Source: Flavobacteriales bacterium
GTDB lineage: Bacteria > Bacteroidota > Bacteroidia > Flavobacteriales_F > PHOS-HE28
Reading direction: 5' to 3'
DNA length: 64,000 nt
NCBI GenBank assembly: GCA_041749915.1
Contig: JBGTAJ010000048.1
Location: 17,844-81,843, forward strand
A program made the translations under genes and the position numbers. This document shows, piece after piece, positions 2 to 64,000 of this stretch (position 1 is its first letter; each line of letters opens with the position of its first letter). Under the pieces are notes generated by a model. That model was not told where the DNA came from, did not search any database, and worked only from the letters and a program-made list of their open reading frames with translations.

Positions 2-631
2 CGCGCTCTGCTCCTCGCCAGTAGCCTGTTCCTGCACGTGGCGGTGGCATTCGCGCAGGAGGATACCTTGGCCATTCCCGTGCAGGCGGACAGCCTGATC
101 ATCACCGGCGGTGTTCCGGAACCCATGATGGACAGCACGGCCGTAGCGCCCGCACAAGCTGCTGACACCCTGGACTGGCGGGCCCGGCATTCACCGCACA
201 AGGCTTCCATCCTTTCTGCCGTCCTGCCCGGCGCCGGGCAGATATACAACCGCAAGTACTGGAAGGCGCCCATCGTCTGGGCCGGACTGGGCACCTGCGT
301 CTATTTCATCCAGGAGAACAGTGCCGAATACCGGCGCTACAAGGATGCCTACATCGCCTTGGTGGACGGTGACCCCACGACAACCGATGAGTTCAATGGC
401 CAGTTCAGCGCTGCCCAGGTGCTGGATGTGACGGATACCTACCGGCGCTGGCGTGACCTGAGCTACATCGCCTTCGGCCTGGTGTACATGCTGAACATCG
501 TCGATGCAGGTGTGGACGCGAACTTCGTTCATTTCGATGTGAGCCGCGACCTGAGCTTGAACGTCGGGCCATCCATGGAACTGGCCTCAAGAGGGGCGGC
601 CGGCCTGTCGTTCTCTCTGGCCCTGCGTTGA
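2..631 (+). CDS. DUF5683-type membrane/exported protein (5' end probably upstream of window)
   Basis: Frame open from base 2 with signal-peptide-like residues; SAVLPGAGQIYNRKYWKAPIVW motif; typically precedes dapB in Bacteroidota. Confidence 0.75.
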   Translation, partial: RALLLASSLFLHVAVAFAQEDTLAIPVQADSLIITGGVPEPMMDSTAVAPAQAADTLDWRARHSPHKASILSAVLPGAGQIYNRKYWKAPIVWAGLGTCVYFIQENSAEYRRYKDAYIALVDGDPTTTDEFNGQFSAAQVLDVTDTYRRWRDLSYIAFGLVYMLNIVDAGVDANFVHFDVSRDLSLNVGPSMELASRGAAGLSFSLALR

Positions 632-746
632 AGCATCGCACCCGGCCACATGTGCCGGGCGTTTACCTTCGGCGCCGGCCCTGAGCACTTGATCATCCGT
701 ACGGTGTCAGCGTATCCAGGACCAACGGACCAGAACTCTCCCTACC

Positions 747-1466
747 ATGCGCATCGCACTTTATGGATATGGCCGCATGGGCAAGGCCATTGAGGCCATT
801 GCCCTCAGCCGCGGGCACGAGGTGGTGCTGCGCGTGGATGCCTCCAATGCAGGCACCCCGCCCACCGGTTCCGACGTGGCCATCGAGTTCAGCAGGCCGG
901 AGCAGGCGCTGGGCAACATGCGGCTGTGCCTGGAACACGGCGTTCCCGTAGTGGTGGGAACCACCGGTTGGTACGACGAAATGAACACCGTGCAGGCGCT
1001 TGTGCGTCGAACGGGCGGGACGCTTCTGTGGGCCAGCAACTTCAGCATCGGGGTGAACCTGTTCTTCCGCGTGAACCGCATGCTGGCCGGGCTGATGGAC
1101 CGCCAGCCGCAGTACGGCGTGCACATCGATGAGGTCCACCACGTCCGCAAGCTGGACGCTCCCAGCGGGACCGCCATCACCCTGGCGCGGGACATCGACC
1201 TGAAGCATCGTGCGTATTCCGGTTGGGCCCTGGCACCGGCCCCTGCTCCCACCGGTACACCTACCTCAGTCCCCATCAACGCCGAGCGCATCGGTGAGGT
1301 CCCCGGAAAACATTCCGTGACCTGGACCGGCCCGGATGACCGCATCACCATTACTCACGAGGCCTTTGGTCGCACGGGTTTCGCGACCGGCGCGGTGGTG
1401 GCCGCGGAATGGCTGCAGGGCCGCAACGGGCTGTTCACCATGGATGATGTGCTGGATGTCTCCTGA
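747..1466 (+). CDS. dapB: 4-hydroxy-tetrahydrodipicolinate reductase
   Basis: GYGRMG Rossmann motif, VGTTG, ASNFSIG, EVHHVRKLDAPSGTA. Confidence 0.97.
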   Translation: MRIALYGYGRMGKAIEAIALSRGHEVVLRVDASNAGTPPTGSDVAIEFSRPEQALGNMRLCLEHGVPVVVGTTGWYDEMNTVQALVRRTGGTLLWASNFSIGVNLFFRVNRMLAGLMDRQPQYGVHIDEVHHVRKLDAPSGTAITLARDIDLKHRAYSGWALAPAPAPTGTPTSVPINAERIGEVPGKHSVTWTGPDDRITITHEAFGRTGFATGAVVAAEWLQGRNGLFTMDDVLDVS

Positions 1467-1594
1467 AACCCTCCGTTCATCGTACCCGATCACCACTTGT
1501 ACCGCCGTTCACAGCATTTCACGATCGGTCCGAGGCCTACGTCAGTCGTAGTTCGCACCTTCGCTGACCGCATCCATCCCCGCAACCCGCGATC

Positions 1595-3139
1595 ATGATC
1601 CCCTACCTCTTCCTCTTCGCCTATTTCGCTGTGCTGATGGCCAGCCTGTGGAAGCTGTTCCAGAAGGCCGGCAAGCCTGCCTGGGCCGGATTCGTTCCGG
1701 GGTACAACATCCTGGTGTGGCTGCAGATCACCGGCAAACCCTGGTGGTGGATCTTCCTCTTCGTGGTGCCGGGTGTGAACCTGCTCATGTTCATCATCAT
1801 GAACGTGAACATCAGCATCGTGCTAGGCGAACGGGAAGTGAAGGACCATGTGCTGATGGTGTTCGTTCCCTGGTGGAAGGTCCCCCAGCTGTGCTACTCC
1901 GACAAGACGTTCGTGGGCCCCATCCCCGTGGCGCAGCGCAAGCGGGGCATGGTGGGCCAGTGGGGCGATGCGATCCTGTTCGCGGTGATCGTGGCCACCG
2001 TGTTCCGCACCTTCACCTTCGAGGCCTTCACCATTCCCACGCCATCCATGGAGAAGAGCCTGCTGGTGGGTGACTACCTCTTTGTGAGCAAGCTGAGCTA
2101 CGGCCCACGCCTGCCCATCACCCCCATCACCTTCCCTTTCACGCACCACACCCTGCCGCTTACCACCAGCACGCCCTCCTTCGTGAACTGGTTCAGCCAA
2201 CCCTACCGCAGGCTTCCCGGTTTCGGGACCCCGCAACGCGGCGATGCAGTGGTCTTCAACTTCCCGGAGGGTGATACCGTGGTGGCCAATTTCCAGAACC
2301 AGAGCTACTACCAGATGGCCCGGCAATACGGCCGGGAGAAACTGCACGACCCCAATGCCCGCATCGAGAGCTATGATGAGCTCGGTCGGCGTACCATGAA
2401 GCCCACCGGAGGCATCCTGGTGCGCCCGGTGGACAAGCGCGAGAACTACATCAAACGCTGCGTGGCCATCGCCGGCGACAGTCTGCAGGTGGTGCATGGG
2501 CAGGTGCTGGTGAACGGGAAGGCCTCGCCCCTGGCGAACACCGGACAGTACGCCTACGAGTTCCAGCTAAAGAGCTCCTTCCGGCCGGACCTGCTAAAGA
2601 AACGCTTCGACATCTCGCCCAGTGATGTGCAGGACAACGGCCGCATGGCGCTGATCCCCATGACGGACGAGGTGGCGGAGAAAGTGGGGAAGTTCGACAA
2701 CGTGGTGAGCATGACCCGTCAGGACCACCCCGAAGGGTTCTACGATCCCTATGGCAGCTGGCCCATCTACCCCAACACCCCGGAGTATCACTGGACGGAG
2801 GACAACTTCGGCCCGATCTGGATCCCGAAGGCCGGGGTGACGATCACCCTGACTGAAAAGAACCTGCCCCTCTATCGCCGTGCCATCACACTATACGAAG
2901 GCAACACGCTGGAGGTGAAGGACGGCGCCATCCTGATCAACGGTGCGGTGTCGGACACGTACACATTCAAACAGGACTACTACTGGATGATGGGCGACAA
3001 CCGCCACCGTTCACAGGACAGTCGGTTCTGGGGCTTCGTGCCGCATGACCACGTCGTGGGCAAGGCCGTTCTCGTTTGGTTCACCAAGGACCCGTACACC
3101 GGCATACGCTGGAAACGATTGTTCACCCTAGTGAAGTGA
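1595..3139 (+). CDS. lepB: Signal peptidase I with N-terminal DUF5684-like membrane domain
   Basis: IPTPSMEKSLLVGD (Ser), YIKRCVA (Lys), MMGDNRHRSQDSRFWGFVP. Confidence 0.95.
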   Translation: MIPYLFLFAYFAVLMASLWKLFQKAGKPAWAGFVPGYNILVWLQITGKPWWWIFLFVVPGVNLLMFIIMNVNISIVLGEREVKDHVLMVFVPWWKVPQLCYSDKTFVGPIPVAQRKRGMVGQWGDAILFAVIVATVFRTFTFEAFTIPTPSMEKSLLVGDYLFVSKLSYGPRLPITPITFPFTHHTLPLTTSTPSFVNWFSQPYRRLPGFGTPQRGDAVVFNFPEGDTVVANFQNQSYYQMARQYGREKLHDPNARIESYDELGRRTMKPTGGILVRPVDKRENYIKRCVAIAGDSLQVVHGQVLVNGKASPLANTGQYAYEFQLKSSFRPDLLKKRFDISPSDVQDNGRMALIPMTDEVAEKVGKFDNVVSMTRQDHPEGFYDPYGSWPIYPNTPEYHWTEDNFGPIWIPKAGVTITLTEKNLPLYRRAITLYEGNTLEVKDGAILINGAVSDTYTFKQDYYWMMGDNRHRSQDSRFWGFVPHDHVVGKAVLVWFTKDPYTGIRWKRLFTLVK

Positions 3140-3186
3140 GCGGGGACGTGATCAACCGGCTCTTTCGCCTCGACCTGTCTTATTGA

Positions 3187-4143
3187 ATGGAGGTCGGGCC
3201 AGGGTCAGCGACCGGAAGGGTTGTGAAGCAGCGCCGGCCTGCTCTGCGGGATTGGATGCGTGCCCTGGTCCCGGCCCTTGGGCTGCTGGTCCTGCTGCAC
3301 CTGTTCGTGGTGCGCTGGGCCGTGGTGGAGAACACCAGCATGTACGCCACGCTTCGTCCGGGTGACCTGGTGATGGTGCAGCGCTGGGCCAAGTGGACCG
3401 GTGTCGGCCGCGGTGACATCGTCCTGTTCCGCGACCCCTTGAAGGACCGGTTGCCCTTGTGGCGCCGCCCGCTCATGGTGAAGCGCATCGTGGGCATGCC
3501 GGGTGACACCGTGGAGATCCGGAACGGCGTGCTGACCATCAATGGACAACGACAGGATGCCGCCCCGGGCGAGACCCGCAGCCACTTGGTGCGCTTGCGA
3601 TCCGGGGCCTCTCCGGCCGGGGTGTTGCAGTTCCTGGGCCTCGAAGGCATGGCGATCATGGAAGGCAGGTCATTCATCGAACTGCCGCTGAACGACAGCC
3701 TTGCGCAGGAACTGGAACGACGTCCCGACGTGGTGAGCGTTTCACCGATGGGGCCGTCCACGGGCTCACCGGGGCACATCTTTCCGTTCAGTCCACGCTA
3801 CCGGTGGAACGGGGATGACTACGGGCCCGTGGTAGTGCCGGCAAAGGGCGATACGGTGACCATCACCATCGATAACCTGCCGCTGTATGACCGGATCATC
3901 AGCCGGTATGAAGGACATCGCTTGGTGGCCAACGGCAACGTGCTCATGTTGGACGATGCGCCGCTGGAGCACTATGTGATCGAACAGGACTATTTCTTCG
4001 TGCTGGGCGACAGCCGGCATCACAGTGCGGATTCCCGTTACTGGGGCTTTGTGCCAAGGGACCATATGGTCGGAAGGACCGATCTGGTGATCACCGGTCA
4101 CGGCGCCAACGGTGAACGGAGCGGTCCGAGAATGCTGGAATGA
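3187..4143 (+). CDS. lepB: Second signal peptidase I (S26)
   Basis: NTSMYATLRPGD, VKRIVGMPGD, LGDSRHHSADSRYWGFVP. Confidence 0.9.
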   Translation: MEVGPGSATGRVVKQRRPALRDWMRALVPALGLLVLLHLFVVRWAVVENTSMYATLRPGDLVMVQRWAKWTGVGRGDIVLFRDPLKDRLPLWRRPLMVKRIVGMPGDTVEIRNGVLTINGQRQDAAPGETRSHLVRLRSGASPAGVLQFLGLEGMAIMEGRSFIELPLNDSLAQELERRPDVVSVSPMGPSTGSPGHIFPFSPRYRWNGDDYGPVVVPAKGDTVTITIDNLPLYDRIISRYEGHRLVANGNVLMLDDAPLEHYVIEQDYFFVLGDSRHHSADSRYWGFVPRDHMVGRTDLVITGHGANGERSGPRMLE

Positions 4144-4160
4144 GGGGTATTTTTAGCCCC

Positions 4161-4655
4161 ATGAAGATCTGGTCCGGTGGGTTTCTCGTGGTTGCGGCCT
4201 GGGTTCTGGGGGGATGTGGTGGAGCGCAGGACAAGGATGCCTGTACGAAGTTCTTCACGCCTTACCCGGACCTGTTCGCCAATACCGAGCGTAGCGTGAA
4301 GAACGCAGATCTGTTGGATGCCATGGCCAAATACCGAGCCGGAGACTATGCCGGTGCGGAGGAACTGCTGAAGGCCTATGTGGGACGTCCTGCTTCGAAG
4401 GACATCGCACTGATCTACCTGGCCAGCGCTCAACTGGCCCAGGGTAGGCCTTACGATGCCGAGCTGCAATTGGACCACCTGGAGGCCAGCAAGCTAAAGG
4501 ACATGAGCGATCAGACAGAGTGGTATACGCTGCTGTGCTGGGTGTGCAGCGAGCAGCATGATCGTGCGGTCACCGAGGCACGGCGCATCGCGGAAGCGGG
4601 TCGGCATACCTACCAGCGTGAGGCCCGGGAACTGCTGAAGATGTTGGAACAGTGA
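4161..4655 (+). CDS. TPR-like lipoprotein
   Basis: Lipobox LGGC after hydrophobic stretch; helical TPR-like repeats; ATG 4161 follows a TATTTTTA -7-like element. Confidence 0.65.
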   Translation: MKIWSGGFLVVAAWVLGGCGGAQDKDACTKFFTPYPDLFANTERSVKNADLLDAMAKYRAGDYAGAEELLKAYVGRPASKDIALIYLASAQLAQGRPYDAELQLDHLEASKLKDMSDQTEWYTLLCWVCSEQHDRAVTEARRIAEAGRHTYQREARELLKMLEQ

Positions 4656-5290
4656 CCTACGAGGAGGCGTTGCAGCAGCTTACCGAGGCGTTCCGGCGAC
4701 CGCTGCCCGGGCACGACCGTTTCCTGCGGATGTCCGGCTATCCCCGGCCCGATATGGACCAGGTCCGTGCGATGGTGCCCTCGCCCCGGGAGAGCGCCGT
4801 GCTGGCCATGGTCTACCCCAAGGGCTTGATGGCCCACGTGATGCTGATGGTGCGGCCCCAGTACGACGGCGTGCACAGCGGTCAGGTCGCCTTTCCAGGA
4901 GGGCGTCGCGAGGAAGTGGACGCCACCTTGGAGGATACCGCGCTACGTGAATTCCGGGAAGAGACGGGCGCTGCCATTGATGCTGTCACCGTCCACGGTG
5001 CCCTTTCACCGGTGTACATTCCGCCGAGCCGGAGCCTGGTGACGCCCTATGTGGCAAGCACCGCCGAACTGGGTCCCTTGGTGCCCGACCCCTACGAGGT
5101 GCAGGCGCTCATCGAGGCACCGCTGGAACTGCTGTTGCGCGCTGACATCCTGAAGAAAGGAGATCGCTTCGTGCAGGTGATGGATCGCACCATGGAGGTC
5201 CCCTACTTCGACGTGCAGGGCCACATGGTGTGGGGCGCCACGGCCATGATGATCGCCGAACTACGCGACCTGTTCGGCGGCCAGGGGTGA
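4652..5290 (+). CDS. Nudix hydrolase, CoA pyrophosphatase family
   Basis: HSGQVAFPGG...TALREFREETG Nudix box, VWGATAM. Confidence 0.92.
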   Translation: MTYEEALQQLTEAFRRPLPGHDRFLRMSGYPRPDMDQVRAMVPSPRESAVLAMVYPKGLMAHVMLMVRPQYDGVHSGQVAFPGGRREEVDATLEDTALREFREETGAAIDAVTVHGALSPVYIPPSRSLVTPYVASTAELGPLVPDPYEVQALIEAPLELLLRADILKKGDRFVQVMDRTMEVPYFDVQGHMVWGATAMMIAELRDLFGGQG

Positions 5291-8200
5291 TCCCACTTCG
5301 CGCCGGAACTTGTCGTTGGGGCGGGTCCCCTGCTCATCCGCACTGTACGCCGGTTTGATCCGGCGCACGAAGTACATGTCGATCGCGCCCTTGTTCTTGG
5401 CCGCGACCTGCCCACGGGATTCGCACTCGAAGCGGTCCTTGATGAGCTCGTATGTGGCACCGCTGATGTTCACTTCTCCGGGTGCACCGCTGCTCTCCAT
5501 CCGGCTGGCCGTGTTCACGGTATCGCCCCAGATGTCGTAGGCGAACTTTCGTTTGCCCACCACACCGGCCACCACCGGTCCGCTGTGCACGCCGATCCGC
5601 AGGATCCACGGGGTCTTCCCCTGCGCCTCGCGTTCGCGCCGCCAATCGTCCATCAGGTCCCGCACTTCCAAGGCCGCCAGGATGCACTTATGCGCATGGA
5701 ACGGGTCGCTGGTGGGAACGCCGGCGGCGCACATGTAACTGTCGCCGATGGTCTTGATCTTCTCGATACCGTAGTTGCCCACGATCTCGTCGAAGCGGAT
5801 GAAGCACTCATCCAGTTCGTTGACCAGCTCTTCCGGCGTCATCTTCTCCGCCGCCTGAGTGAAGCCCTTCATATCCGTGAACAGCACGGTGACCTTCTCA
5901 TGGCGGCGTGCGGTGGCCTTGCCCTTGTCCTTGAGCTCCTCGCTGATCTCCTTGGGCAGGATGTTCAGCAGCAGGTCCTCGATCCGGCCCTTCTGGCCTT
6001 CGATCTCCTTGCTCTGCGCCACTACTTCCGCGGTGCGCTCTTCCACCTTGCGCTCCAGGACCTGGTTGCGCAACCGGAGTTGGCGCTCGCGCACCTTGAT
6101 GTAGCTGAACAGCACGATGCCGATGGCCAGCACGAGCGCGGTGTAGAACCACCAGGAACGATACCACGGAGGAAGGATGATGAATCCCAGTTGCGCTGGG
6201 GGATCGCTCCACAGGCCACTTCGGTCCATGGCCTTCACCTGGAAGGTGTAGTCGCCTGGAGGAAGTGCCGGGTAGTACGCCTCAGCGGTCGTGGTGATGG
6301 GCTGCCAGTCGTCATCCAGACCATCCAATTTGTACATGTAGCGGACGGCTGCGGGATCACTGAGAGAGACGCTGCCATAGCTGATGCGCACGTTCCGGTC
6401 GCTATGGCTCAAGCGGGATTCCGTCAAGGAGCGGTCCTCGAGGTTCACTTTCCATCCGCGCAAAGCCACCAAGGGGGCGATGGAACGTTCTGCTCCTTTC
6501 TCACTGCCCACGCGGGTGGCACCGTTCACCGTGCCGAACCACAGGTCGCCCGTGCGCGTGGTCCACACGGCGTTCGGCTTCACTTCCAGCCCGGTGAACC
6601 CGGCACGCTCGGTGAAGGCGATGAAGCCTCCCTTCTTGGGCCGCCACTTGTTCAGGCCCCGGCTCGTGCCGATCCACACATGACCATGATCATCGATGCC
6701 CAATGCCTTGATGTTGTTGTGAAGCAGCCCTTCGTTGGTGGTGAACTCCTGCACCACCTTGCCGTTCTGAAGCACCATGATCCCCTGCCCTTCCGTGCCC
6801 ACCCAGATGCGGCCTTCGAGGTCCTGGACGAAAGCCGTGGGAGTGAACAGGCGGCCAAGGTCCACGCGCTGTGCCTGGCCATTGTCAATGCGTGTGATAC
6901 CCTTCGCCAAACTGCCAGCCCAAATGGTGCCTTTGGGGTCGCGATAGAGCGAAACAATGTTCCTTCCGGCCAGGCCTTCACCTTCGGTGTATACGGTCGG
7001 CACGGTGCCCGATCCGGGCAGATAGCGACGAAGACCGTTGACACCACCCACCCAAAGCTCGCCAGACTGGCCGACCTCGAGGGCGGTCACACGGTTATCG
7101 CCAAGGCTGGCCGACAGCTCGACGTCATACACCGCCTTGCCGCTTCGGGGGTCATAGCGGATCAGGCCTCCGTTGTGCGTGCCGATCCACATGTAGCCTT
7201 TGTCGTCCTCCCGCAAACAACGTATGAAGTTGGTAGTGAGCGTTCCCTGCTGTTGGGTGATGGTCTGTGCCACACCGCCACCTTGTTTGCCGGATATGAT
7301 GACGATGCCGCCGTTGGTGCCGAACCAAGTTCGCCCTTGGGAATCTTCGGTCACGGCGAACACCTGCGGATCGGAGAGCCCATCGGCTTCGCCGAAACTG
7401 ACGAAACGATCGCCCTTGAAGATGTCGAGGCCGCTGTCGTTGGTGCCGATCAACAAGTTGCCTTCCCGGTCGCGAACGATGCACCGCACGAAGTCGCTGT
7501 GCAAGCCATTGCTCTTGCTGAAAGTGCGCAAGCCATCCTTGGCGATCAAGCACACCCCCCCTTCCGTGGTACCGGCCCAGATCTGTCCTTCGCCGTCCTC
7601 GCCAAAGGCGAAGACGGTGCCATCGGAAAGACCATTGGACGGATCATAGCGCGAGATCAGCTTTCCACTGGCATCGAACTGGAACGCTCCACCACCAATG
7701 GTACCTACCCATATTGCTTTCCGACTGTCCTGAAAGAGCGTTATGGCTTTGAAGATGTCGGTCACACCGGGCAGTTCCACCAAGGCGAACTGCTTGGACC
7801 CGGGATCGTAGGCGCGGATCGTGCCGGCATCCTGCACGAAGCAGAGCCGGTCATCCTGCAGCTTCACCACACCGCGCAGCACCTTGCGAAGACCGGCAGC
7901 CTCCTCGAACTGCTGCACCTTCAATGTGCCACTTTCATCGGGGGCACCCTCCACCCGGAACGCTCCGTGGCCTGCGGTGCTCAGCCAGATGGAAGCATCA
8001 CTGGCCTGTGCAATGCCCGTGATGTCGCTGTGCATGCCGGTTGCCACCGCAAGCGTTCGGAACCGGTGACCGTCGTAATACGTGAGACCACCGTCCAGGT
8101 GACCGATCCAAAGCCCACCATCCTTGTCCAAACAGAGGGAAGGAACGCCATTGGCCGCCAGCCCGTCCTGCGTGCCGTAGTTGACCACCACATTACCGTC

Positions 8201-61659: not shown

Positions 61660-62322
61660 ATGAGAACGAGCGCGGAGGAGAATTACCTCAAGGCCATCTT
61701 CAGTCTGGCTGAACAGAACGGAAAGGGGGCCAGCACAACTGCCATTGCGGCGCACCTGAGGACCAAGGCCTCCTCCGTCACGGACATGGTGAAGCGACTG
61801 AACGAGAAAGGTCTGGTGGACCATCGACCCTATTACGGCGTGTCGCTGACGGACACCGGCACCCAGGTCGCGACGTTGATCGTGCGTAAGCACCGCCTGT
61901 GGGAGACCTTCCTGGTGAACCACCTGAACTACCGGTGGGACGAGGTGCACGACCTGGCCGAGCAGCTGGAGCACATCGATTCGGTCGACCTGCACGACCG
62001 GCTGGACAAGTTCATGGACCACCCCAAGTTCGATCCGCACGGCGACCCCATTCCCGACCGCGAGGGACGCATGGTGGACATGGCGGGGGCCCAGCCCCTT
62101 TCCGAAGTCGCGAAGGACACCTTGGTGCACATCGTGGGTGTGAAGGACTCCTCGCCCGCCTTCCTGAAGCTGCTGGACGGGCTCGGCCTGAAGCTGGGCA
62201 CGCAGCTCACGGTGAACCGGCGTTTCGAGTACGACAACTCGGTGGAGGTGAGCAGCCGTTTCCGGAGCGGACTGCTGCTGAATGAGCAAGTGAGCCTGAA
62301 CCTGACCGTGAAAGCGCTGTGA
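61660..62322 (+). CDS. mntR: DtxR/MntR family metal-dependent repressor with FeoA domain
   Basis: EENYLKAI, SVTDMVKRL, RKHRLWETFL, AEQLEH, DPHGDPIP. Confidence 0.9.
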   Translation: MRTSAEENYLKAIFSLAEQNGKGASTTAIAAHLRTKASSVTDMVKRLNEKGLVDHRPYYGVSLTDTGTQVATLIVRKHRLWETFLVNHLNYRWDEVHDLAEQLEHIDSVDLHDRLDKFMDHPKFDPHGDPIPDREGRMVDMAGAQPLSEVAKDTLVHIVGVKDSSPAFLKLLDGLGLKLGTQLTVNRRFEYDNSVEVSSRFRSGLLLNEQVSLNLTVKAL

Positions 62323-63146
62323 GCATGGAGACCATCATCCAGTACTTCGAGAGCATCGATCCCATCCTGGCCGCATTCCTGGCCACGATGTTCACCTGGG
62401 GCGTGACGGCTGCCGGGGCCTCGGTCGTGTTCTTTTTCAAGACCCTCAGCCGTCGCTGGCTGGACGGTATGCTAGGCTTCACCGGTGGTGTGATGATCGC
62501 CGCCAGCTACTGGAGCCTGCTGGCACCGAGCATCGAGATGAGCGAGCGCATGGGCATGATCCCCTGGCTGCCTCCGGCCGTGGGCTTCGCGCTGGGTGCG
62601 CTCTTCCTCTTCGTGCTGGACAAGTACGTGCCCCACCTGCACATCAACTTCGATCCCTCGGCCAGTGAAGGTCCAAAGACCGAATGGCGGCGCACCACCC
62701 TGCTGATCTTGGCCATCACCCTGCACAACATCCCGGAAGGACTGGCTGTGGGCGTGCTCTTTGGCGGTGTGGCGGCCGGCGTTCCGGAAGCCACCATCGG
62801 TGGCGCCGTGGCACTGGCCCTTGGCATCGGTCTGCAGAACTTCCCCGAAGGCATTGCGGTGAGCATGCCGCTGCGTCGCCTCGGTCTCTCCCGCCGGCGC
62901 AGCTTCTTCTACGGCCAGCTCAGCGCCATCGTGGAACCCATCGCCGGTGTGATCGGCGCCGTCGCAGTGCTGTGGATGCAACCCGTCCTACCCTACGCCT
63001 TGGCCTTTGCCGCCGGCGCGATGATCTACGTGGTCATCGAGGAGGTGATCCCCGAAACACAGGTGGACGGACATTCGGACATCCCCATCCTGGGCTTCAT
63101 CGGCGGCTTCATCGTGATGATGGTGCTGGATGTGGGGCTGGGGTGA
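62319..63146 (+). CDS. ZIP family metal transporter (GufA/ZupT)
   Basis: ITLHNIPEGLAVG, QNFPEG, FAAGAMIYVV.EE.IPE. Confidence 0.93.
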   Translation: MSMETIIQYFESIDPILAAFLATMFTWGVTAAGASVVFFFKTLSRRWLDGMLGFTGGVMIAASYWSLLAPSIEMSERMGMIPWLPPAVGFALGALFLFVLDKYVPHLHINFDPSASEGPKTEWRRTTLLILAITLHNIPEGLAVGVLFGGVAAGVPEATIGGAVALALGIGLQNFPEGIAVSMPLRRLGLSRRRSFFYGQLSAIVEPIAGVIGAVAVLWMQPVLPYALAFAAGAMIYVVIEEVIPETQVDGHSDIPILGFIGGFIVMMVLDVGLG

Positions 63147-63150
63147 GCGT

Positions 63151-63281
63151 TAACGTTTCGCAGCTACCCGAAGGTGGCGATTTCGAAGCATTTCACTGTC
63201 AACCAAGCAGAGACTTTGATAGAAGTACAAAGCTTGACTTAGCCACTGAACCGCCACTTTGGGGTAGGTTCTGTTACCTGC
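63151..63281 (-). repeat. attC-like imperfect palindrome
   Basis: TAAC(63151-54)/GTTA(63273-76) ends; 20-bp arms 63164-83 and 63248-67 with 16 Watson-Crick pairs; cassette gene stop lies inside the GGTAAC box. Confidence 0.7.
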
Positions 63282-63887
63282 TGGCTTCCTTCTCAATTCG
63301 TCCATTTTCTAAAATTCGATACTCGACCTTTCCTGTTGTAATTTTCATACTTCCTTCGATAATGTCCGTTTCTTCTTCATTAAAGTCCCAACGCTTTAAT
63401 GTGTCTCGGACGGTAATTGTTCGGTCAGCATTAAATGTCACATATTCTATTGCTTCATATCCCATGTCTTGACCACTCTTGTCGTAAAGTCCAGTCGAGT
63501 CAATTTATTTCCTTTTAGGTCATATGTAGTCAAGAAGGGTACAAGTCCCCAATCTCCAATTGAGCAGTCAATAATTCCAATTGTATTATCGTCCTTATAG
63601 TAGATTCCTAAGGGTTGGATCGTCCACGTGTGCTTATATTTTTCGAAGGCTTTATTGTCAAAGTTCTTTGAGGTCTCTGGAAGTTGTTCAAGTGGATTAG
63701 CTTCCAAGGGAAGAGGAATCTGGTCGAGTGTTGAAATGTAATTTTCAAAGTCTGAGTTTGTCTGTTCAGTTGCTTTATTAGATTCGGGTGAATTTTCCTT
63801 TTTAGTCGGACTGTCACAACTCCATAAAATGGATAATAAAATTATCGATATGATTAGTTCTCTCATTGTTGTTCAGCTTGCAGGTAA
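63154..63887 (-). mobile_element. Integron-like single gene cassette
   Basis: Sharp GC drop (~35-40%); TAAC at both junctions; GTTACCTGC (63273-81) and GCAGGTAAC (63880-88) would pair in the excised circle. Confidence 0.7.
63274..63866 (-). pseudogene. Frameshifted lipoprotein of unknown function (about 197 aa if repaired)
   Basis: Lipobox LWSC; one extra A in the run near 63503-63505 joins the two track ORFs as ...GNKIDSTGLYDKSGQDMGYEAIEY... Confidence 0.7.
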
Positions 63888-64000
63888 CTCTTAATAAACG
63901 CATTGCGTCTTACCACCCGATACGGCACAATTGAAGCAATACGTCAACTCACTGGCCATTGGGTGGAACTGATCAACAGGCATCATGGCTCACTTGGTCC

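Follow-up and report, generated by a model that had tools for sequence, protein, structure and literature searches.

A probable integron-like gene cassette next to a ZIP transporter gene in a Flavobacteriales genome, and the hairpin family that accompanies it in Bacteroidota

What defines an integron is IntI with its special domain, the reader of extrahelical attC bases. The Vibrio superintegron, a sedentary chromosomal integron, carries species-typical attC repeats of about 120 to 130 nt, and in the "inverted" integrons of Spirochaetes the attI site is located downstream of a co-oriented intI. In the present study we considered a 64,000-nucleotide stretch of DNA from a Flavobacteriales bacterium (assembly GCA_041749915.1, contig JBGTAJ010000048.1, positions 17,844 to 81,843), hereafter the window, in which an AT-rich block with a lipoprotein-like gene and an imperfect hairpin at its end follows a ZIP-family metal transporter gene. 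An earlier note on this DNA had interpreted the block as an integron-like gene cassette with a noncanonical attC site. The comparative analysis supports both the reality of the cassette and that interpretation, and none of the outcomes named in the note as contrary to it was observed. We consider it very probable that the block represents one gene cassette belonging to an integron-like system for gene capture that is widespread in Bacteroidota.

Outside integrons, the substrates of Xer recombinases are dif-like sites or single-stranded DNA in folded form, as is known for the CTX phage, IMEX elements, and pdif modules, the last of which are bounded by short (28-bp) duplex Xer sites in alternating orientation. 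As far as the consulted portion of the paper extends, archaeal integrons have attI downstream of a co-oriented intI, and their integrases carry the defining additional domain (PMC9668308). The available part of another study describes, for IntI integrons, the insertion of cassettes at genomic secondary (attG) sites (10.1101/2022.09.11.507474). For Bacteroidetes, the accessible section of a survey lists only In0 elements and one complete integron, in Salinibacter (PMC9024848). A full-text literature search, whose scope did not extend to figures, supplements, and paywalled papers, returned no description of the system presented here.

The hairpin family, cassette boundaries, and arrays

The hairpin at the end of the block is neither unique nor tied to one gene. 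BLAST identified three further copies in the same genome, on contigs C111, C260, and C120, other families also carry copies, and, as the earlier note had anticipated, many copies stand downstream of unrelated open reading frames (ORFs). The length is almost constant at 137 nt among the 14 aligned copies, and the palindrome of about 125 nt proposed earlier has to be extended to this size. Each copy is laid out as a variable box ending in TAAC, one unpaired base, a stem, a variable top, the returning stem, an unpaired AAAAC or AAACC, and G^TTA (^ marks the crossover), with the motif A-A-[A/C]-C-G^T-T kept across the alignment. The secondary structure obtained for the 14 copies by RNAalifold features a 19-bp stem, in which 13 of the 19 pairs show compensatory changes on both sides. 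When the four TAAC/GTTA pairs are included, 94.4% of the cells are paired, compared with 74.5% in shuffles (none of 500 reached the observed value) and 25 to 42% with slid partners. At the junction, TAAC is separated from the stem by 1 nt and GTTA by 5 nt, giving an asymmetric loop with a conserved AAAC bulge. The spacers of 5 and 9 nt previously described between outer box and inner arm are therefore better read as three more covarying pairs plus this 1-nt versus 5-nt loop.

The occurrence of the element on the sense strand downstream of ORFs, the G-T (G-U in RNA) pairs of its top strand, and, in the C111 copy, a following hairpin with a T-run (recognized by eye) are features that a structured RNA or a terminator would also display, that is, a 3' untranslated-region element carried with transferred genes, the boundary matches reported below being by-products. 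However, no Rfam family was found at the element with E ≤ 1 in the two loci searched (L001 and L002), and, of 92 copies, 75 have their better fold in the bottom strand, which is only a hint as to the strand. Moreover, an RNA element would leave unaccounted for the complementarity of the inner box to the start of its own cassette, the exact break of homology at G^TT, and the recombinase at the array heads, and we regard this explanation as extremely improbable.

Considered as part of a gene cassette, the element is widely distributed. A covariance model built on it (R1) finds only four copies in this genome and matches 117 of the 151 genomes drawn from the class, corresponding to 82 of 100 genera, and 81 of the 151 genomes drawn from the phylum. 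The class counts for the element and for the recombinase described below (79/151) include an unpublished genome, G112, that carries both; its removal gives 116/150 and 78/150, and no other claim depends on this genome. An exact 33-nt sub-motif is present on at least 119 contigs, the cultured carriers belonging to Pedobacter, Algoriphagus, Flavobacterium, Sphingobacterium, Cecembia, and Mongoliitalea. The source community also holds many copies, as follows from the summed contig depth over the hairpin (10 to 112 at L001 1527 to 1709, window 63126 to 63308, versus about 2 to 7 over the cassette body) and from the unitigs, which break at the hairpin edge, in four metagenome runs.

We could also notice the 33-nt motif on contigs of metagenome-assembled genomes labelled Limnohabitans, Chromatiales, Deltaproteobacteria, Roseobacteraceae, and Leptonemataceae (L058, L062, L087, L099, and L105), which could represent mis-binning or transfer outside Bacteroidota. 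Because of these few exact matches on contigs labelled as other phyla, the earlier description of the system as specific to Bacteroidota holds only approximately.

The cassette boundaries were examined in 25 fetched loci (263 kb), where R1 gave 104 matches, reduced to 98 nonoverlapping elements. For each pair of neighbouring elements, the sequence starting at the upstream element's G^TT was compared with the reverse complement of the inner box of the downstream element. Agreement over at least 7 nt was observed in 57 of 62 pairs (mean, 8.9), whereas an element's own integrated ends agreed in 4 of 82 cases and random pairs in 5.4% of 5000; typically, 9 to 10 matching nucleotides are followed by a 1- to 2-nt mismatch and then by more matches. 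It follows that TT...G is the unit that keeps both halves matched, as in integron cassettes, and that the bases after the crossover covary with the cassette's own inner box, which the earlier note had put forward as a prediction. The complete cases in this genome (9 nt in the window, 8 to 9 nt on C111, and 10 nt on C260) involve three different sequences, and in nearly every cassette the end complementarity of 9 to 10 nt has a different sequence. Chimeric sites and cassettes bounded at G^TT, both characteristic of integrons, are thus found here.

The same holds for the arrays, which, as in integrons, consist of co-oriented, mostly single-gene cassettes. All the elements of a locus share one strand (25/25 loci) and the units run head to tail, with a median size of 1072 bp (range, 299 to 5728) and with the longest ORF co-oriented with the array in 49 of 68 units. 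The array of genome G146 spans at least 85 kb, and duplicated cassettes occur within arrays. The cargo sampled (10 ORFs from arrays L034, L031, L032, and L035 of G146, G125, G166, and G126) includes several defence-type genes, in particular a C5 DNA methylase beside an HNH protein, GmrSD, an Eco57I-like methylase, a Schlafen-type helicase with an S24 peptidase, and an SF1 helicase with a nuclease domain; no Pfam match was obtained for 3 of the 10 ORFs.

IS91-family transposase genes (Y2_Tnp plus Zn_Tnp_IS91) are also located inside arrays (Table 1), in repeated units of about 1.9 to 3 kb, which share one starting box after G^TT; the IS91 element may target the hairpins or ride on them. In G146, five identical-scoring copies of a tyrosine recombinase of 320 to 335 aa (G146:C1 13071, 3517464, 4305213, 4338592, and 4372698), three of them within the span of the big array and on the opposite strand, look like another mobile element nested in the array.

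The repetition of transposase genes inside arrays, together with the 9-nt inverted repeat that bounds the window cassette, could be taken to indicate a transposable element moved by another enzyme, either a miniature inverted-repeat transposable element (MITE) or an IS91-/HUH-type hairpin system, with the tyrosine recombinase as a bystander. Nevertheless, the inverted repeat is different in nearly every cassette, whereas transposon ends are conserved within a family, and terminal inverted repeats conserved across copies, as expected of MITEs and insertion sequences (IS), were not found. The hairpin lies outside the repeat-bounded segment and yet inside the homology and unit boundaries, and both the head-to-tail arrangement on one strand at all 25 loci and the recombinase at the array heads, with its first crossover at a fixed distance, speak against such an element, which we judge highly improbable.

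The recombinase at the array heads

The earlier note had suggested a search for a co-occurring tyrosine recombinase. On contig C111 of this genome, a tyrosine recombinase of 388 aa (P0001) is transcribed towards AT-rich ORFs and the element, and homologues of 368 to 370 aa (41 to 48% identical) head the arrays of G146, G166, and G126 in the same orientation as the cassettes. In three of these four heads, the predicted first crossover is located at 87 (C111), 92 (G146), and 102 nt (G126) past the recombinase stop, that is, at an attI-like insertion point beside an integrase gene, as in integrons. As read from the match positions, the recombinase is found upstream of an array, on the same contig and co-oriented with it, in 15 genomes and 5 named contigs, including those of Algoriphagus confluentis NBRC 111222 and Pedobacter glucosidilyticus DSM 23534.

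A family profile finds the recombinase in 79 of the 151 class genomes. The cross-tabulation with the element, based on recombinase matches at E ≤ 1e-60, gives 75 genomes with both, 4 with the recombinase only, 42 with the element only, and 30 with neither; the element is thus present in 75 of 79 recombinase-positive and 42 of 72 recombinase-negative genomes, figures that are descriptive only, since related genomes do not count as independent observations.

Several features are those of integrons, namely AAC...GTT cores, a crossover at G^TT, chimeric sites, an attI by the integrase, and co-oriented arrays, and the NCBI name of the best-matching family is "site-specific tyrosine recombinase/integron integrase." It could therefore be supposed that the block is an ordinary integron cassette of an already known kind, in which a true IntI acts on a standard attC. 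However, the four array-head proteins score 194 to 208 bits on TIGR02249 compared to a cut-off of 265, and the match of each falls in two stretches that skip profile positions ~180 to 238. In the comparison with the structure of IntI4 (2a3v), 24 residues are found where IntI4 has 67. No IntI-specific insert is present in the alignment of six family members, and no protein exceeds the curated IntI cut-off in the five genomes checked, four of which have large arrays. The hairpin junction, with its 1-nt versus 5-nt loop and conserved AAAC bulge, also seems to depart from a standard attC. Furthermore, surveys with IntegronFinder report almost nothing in Bacteroidetes, at least in the accessible section (PMC9024848), and, according to the consulted part of another survey, recombinases that lack the IntI region have fewer than three attC sites nearby (PMC4889954). 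An ordinary integron is, in our opinion, very unlikely.

Different from IntI, the recombinase of the cassette system finds its closest fold match among Xer-type proteins, with 5hxy on top, and its scores on the XerA-type model NF040815 (220.3, 227.5, 213.0, and 208.4 bits) straddle the cut-off of 220. The catalytic residues R-K-H-R-H-Y are invariant in the family alignment. The protein has an N-terminal domain of its own, of about 100 aa, for which the predicted structure shows an alpha/beta fold at residues 9 to 79 (predicted local distance difference test score, ~90) followed by a disordered linker; no Pfam family is above cut-off for this domain, and Foldseek on the recombinase model returned tyrosine recombinases only and nothing for the N-terminal domain. 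At least 7994 relatives are found at E ≤ 1e-20, and the names in the databases are "tyrosine-type recombinase/integrase," "XerD," and "site-specific tyrosine recombinase/integron integrase."

On C260 and in the same-genus genome G005, only a decayed 3' end of the recombinase gene and about 100 nt of shared sequence precede the cassettes, and these loci look like integrase-less platform remnants. About 110 nt past the C111 element (L003 1 to 356), the start of an ORF is located at the contig end; it resembles the N terminus of an IS transposase, a point in favour of the transposable-element reading above, but Pfam found nothing for its 37 residues.

The cassette in the window

In the window, the GC content is 0.36 to 0.42 over positions 63200 to 63999, compared with 0.58 to 0.68 over 62300 to 63199 (200-nt windows). 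On the minus strand, the 5' junction reads G(63888)^TT(63887-63886)ACCTGC, with the ATG at 63866, that is, 21 nt from the crossover, and the 3' junction reads ...GAAACG(63154)^TT(63153-63152)AACGC; since the 3' junction G is at 63154 and the cassette starts at 63887, the TT...G unit has the 734 bp reported in Table 1. The first 9 nt at the 5' junction of the cassette recur in reverse complement as the inner box, GCAGGTAAC, and a repeat search returned the corresponding inverted repeat with arms at 63273 to 63286 and 63875 to 63888. The coordinates that the earlier note had assigned to the block, the junctions, the ATG spacing, and the inner box proved exact.

Table 1. Positions of the cassette, its neighbours, and the other features cited in the text (positions are those of the window unless a locus or contig is named)
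Feature	Position	Strand	Remarks
Cassette unit TT...G	63154-63887	minus	734 bp, AT-rich; junctions read from sequence
attC-like hairpin element	63147-63283	minus	137 nt; model R1, 131.8 bits, E 4.6e-27
Parts of the hairpin element			Inner box, stem (19 bp, covarying), top (variable), bulge (AAAC, conserved), G^TT
Inner (R''-like) box GCAGGTAAC	63281-63273	minus	Contains the TAA ending the second reading frame
5' junction G^TTACCTGC	63880-63888	minus	G(63888) is flank; cassette begins at 63887
3' crossover G(63154)^TT	63154^63153-63152	minus	TT onward is chromosome, 6 nt past the ZIP stop
ZIP-family metal transporter gene	62319-63146	plus	Pfam PF02535, 89.1 bits; TGA stop 63144-63146
Gene part 1	63447-63866	minus	139 aa, frameshifted lipoprotein-like gene; break near 63495-63498
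Gene part 2	63274-63465	minus	63 aa, other frame; ends with the TAA inside the inner box
Spacer between cassette and smpB	63889-64000, on to ~64144 beyond the window		~260 nt, 50% GC; L001 2290-2545
IS91-family transposase genes, G125	L031:6225-7433, L031:8104-9315, L030:11485-12696
IS91-family transposase genes, G026	L020:2765-3976, L020:5815-7026
Decayed recombinase 3' ends before cassettes	L004 (C260) ~1350-1600; C170 16692-16859; L021 (G005) 2739-2887

The lipoprotein-like gene was correctly placed 21 nt past the crossover, but it is not a single reading frame, being split over two frames of 139 and 63 aa. The full-length relatives of the protein have mostly 194 aa, the best being 85% identical, and the break corresponds to one A fewer than in G494 (introduced below) in the A-run near 63495 to 63498; the frameshifted sequence is identical in contigs of three runs of one study. 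As the earlier note had observed, the stop codon (TAA, 63276 to 63274) lies within the inner box in the window, where it was moved because of an 8-nt gap, with respect to G494, just before the box. This does not extend to a general rule: the TAA of the inner box serves as stop codon in only 7 of 84 copies, and its use as the usual stop was rejected.

The comparison with related genomes highlighted an empty site. The distance between the ZIP gene and smpB is 0 to 80 nt in the same-genus genomes G018, G006, G011, and G001, and the cassette gene occurs in none of the 12 same-genus genomes. Among 400 other genomes of the class it was found in one, G494, which belongs to another family and whose copy is 86% identical. 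The homology with G494 begins exactly at G^TTACCTGCAAGCTG, with an unrelated upstream flank, so that the only relative with the cassette gene has the same 5' boundary, and the G494 copy, in which the gene is intact and the hairpin is diverged but folds alike, is a member of a four-element array. From the empty site in the relatives and the array copy in G494, we conclude that the window copy is an insertion, probably transferred as one whole unit, and stands alone at a secondary G^TT site.

In the closest relative (G017:C6, L007), about 1.4 kb separates ZIP from smpB, and this stretch starts like the acyltransferase gene located beside the C111 recombinase (by eye; L003 2995 to 4377), which may reflect a rearrangement linking the ZIP-smpB and C111 places.

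Several observations weigh against the interpretation of the block as a cassette of a mobile integron-like system. Within the window, the 9-nt complementarity of the ends is at chance level, since 11 inverted pairs occur in the same 1 kb, two of which are perfect 9- to 10-mers, and the DNA folding z-scores of the hairpin (-1.3 for the top and -2.0 for the bottom strand) are not exceptional alone; these features, near chance when taken alone, were judged real because of the comparative evidence. Within the family, G-T occupies one of the stem positions in 12 of the 14 copies, which favours the top strand or RNA at that position, the C111 element ends in G^TC instead of G^TT, and 5 of the 62 neighbouring pairs fail the complementarity test. 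As regards the recombinase, no first crossover could be located at the head of the G166 array, 42 genomes carry the element without a recombinase at E ≤ 1e-60, and in G127:C23, G130:C150, and L083 the recombinase is divergent from the nearest element. At the locus itself, the approximately 260 nt adjoining the cassette are left unexplained: this spacer has no counterpart in the relatives, where homology resumes at L001 2551 (window 64150), and the 263 nt 5' of the cassette gave no match above shuffles to the integrase 3' ends and attI regions of C111, C260, and L021, to the whole genome, or to the loci. Finally, no joint, circle, or empty-site form and no recombination product was seen in the assembled contigs; the stretch is present in 4 runs of one study among the 20 runs listed, all as contigs, and such material is uninformative for or against excision.

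At the divergent loci just mentioned, the recombinase and the element point apart as in classical integrons and the recombinase scores lower (~311 bits), which may mark a recombinase sub-type.

Proposed mechanism and comparison with known systems

On these grounds, the following mechanism can be proposed. A cassette would consist of TT...ORF...hairpin...G, and its excision as a circle would join both ends, restoring the stem that the inner box (...TAAC) forms with the outer box (GTTA...) in the 137-nt imperfect hairpin. The presumed catalyst is an Xer-like tyrosine recombinase without the IntI-specific insert, here the 388-aa protein of C111, which would act on a folded, single-stranded hairpin, possibly the bottom strand, and join it at G^TT to an attI about 90 to 100 nt past its own stop. 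Repeated insertion at attI would build the co-oriented arrays. The cassette of the window would be a lone one inserted at a secondary G^TT site, 6 nt beyond the stop codon of ZIP; it may have arrived from a low-GC relative and appears to be decaying now through the frameshift.

The class sample shows the cassette logic described here in 117 of its 151 genomes and the phylum sample in 81 of 151, while the adjoining recombinase is without the IntI domain. We see even chances that the system constitutes a second, so far unrecognised lineage of integron-type platforms in Bacteroidota, present in most genera sampled, with an Xer-like recombinase, a 137-nt site of its own, and a stock of defence genes. 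In that case, the recombinase of the lineage would either never have acquired the IntI-specific domain or have replaced it, and the lineage itself would be either a separate origin of the integron principle or an early form that has survived. Should the system prove active, the IntI domain would not be required for hairpin-based cassette capture, and the origin of integrons from Xer-type enzymes would become a direct experimental question. Furthermore, there would be a large untapped pool of cassettes, many of them defence-like, and the standard integron finders would miss a major part of cassette diversity, including that of environmental and host-associated Bacteroidota.

As for the known systems, the recombinase is closest to Xer proteins by sequence and fold, but, different from Xer systems, it is a dedicated accessory recombinase located by its own attI, rather than a housekeeping pair, and it would build cassette arrays. 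In contrast to pdif modules, the elements are 137-nt hairpins in direct orientation. With archaeal and "inverted" Spirochaete integrons the system shares an integrase transcribed towards the array and an attI just past its stop, whereas the recombinases found here lack the additional domain that the consulted portion of PMC9668308 reports for theirs. The window locus resembles an attG insertion in that a single cassette occupies an intergenic spacer, at a G^TT site other than attI; the work available on such insertions concerns IntI integrons (10.1101/2022.09.11.507474), and the event proposed here is deduced from comparison only.

The closest resemblance is to sedentary chromosomal integrons, which likewise have long one-strand arrays of short cassettes, similar repeats, G^TT crossovers, chimeric sites, and duplicated cassettes, as well as defence-type cargo, as described for integrons in the accessible part of 10.1101/2024.07.02.601686. 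Different from them, the recombinase is devoid of the IntI-specific domain and possesses an additional domain at its N terminus, the loop at the hairpin junction is asymmetric (1 nt versus 5 nt) and the bulge conserved, the integrase gene points the same way as the cassettes, and one repeat family extends across orders of a phylum instead of being confined to a genus. In its workings, the system resembles a sedentary chromosomal integron whose integrase is co-oriented with the array; it is set apart by the missing IntI domain and, it seems, by the geometry of its site.

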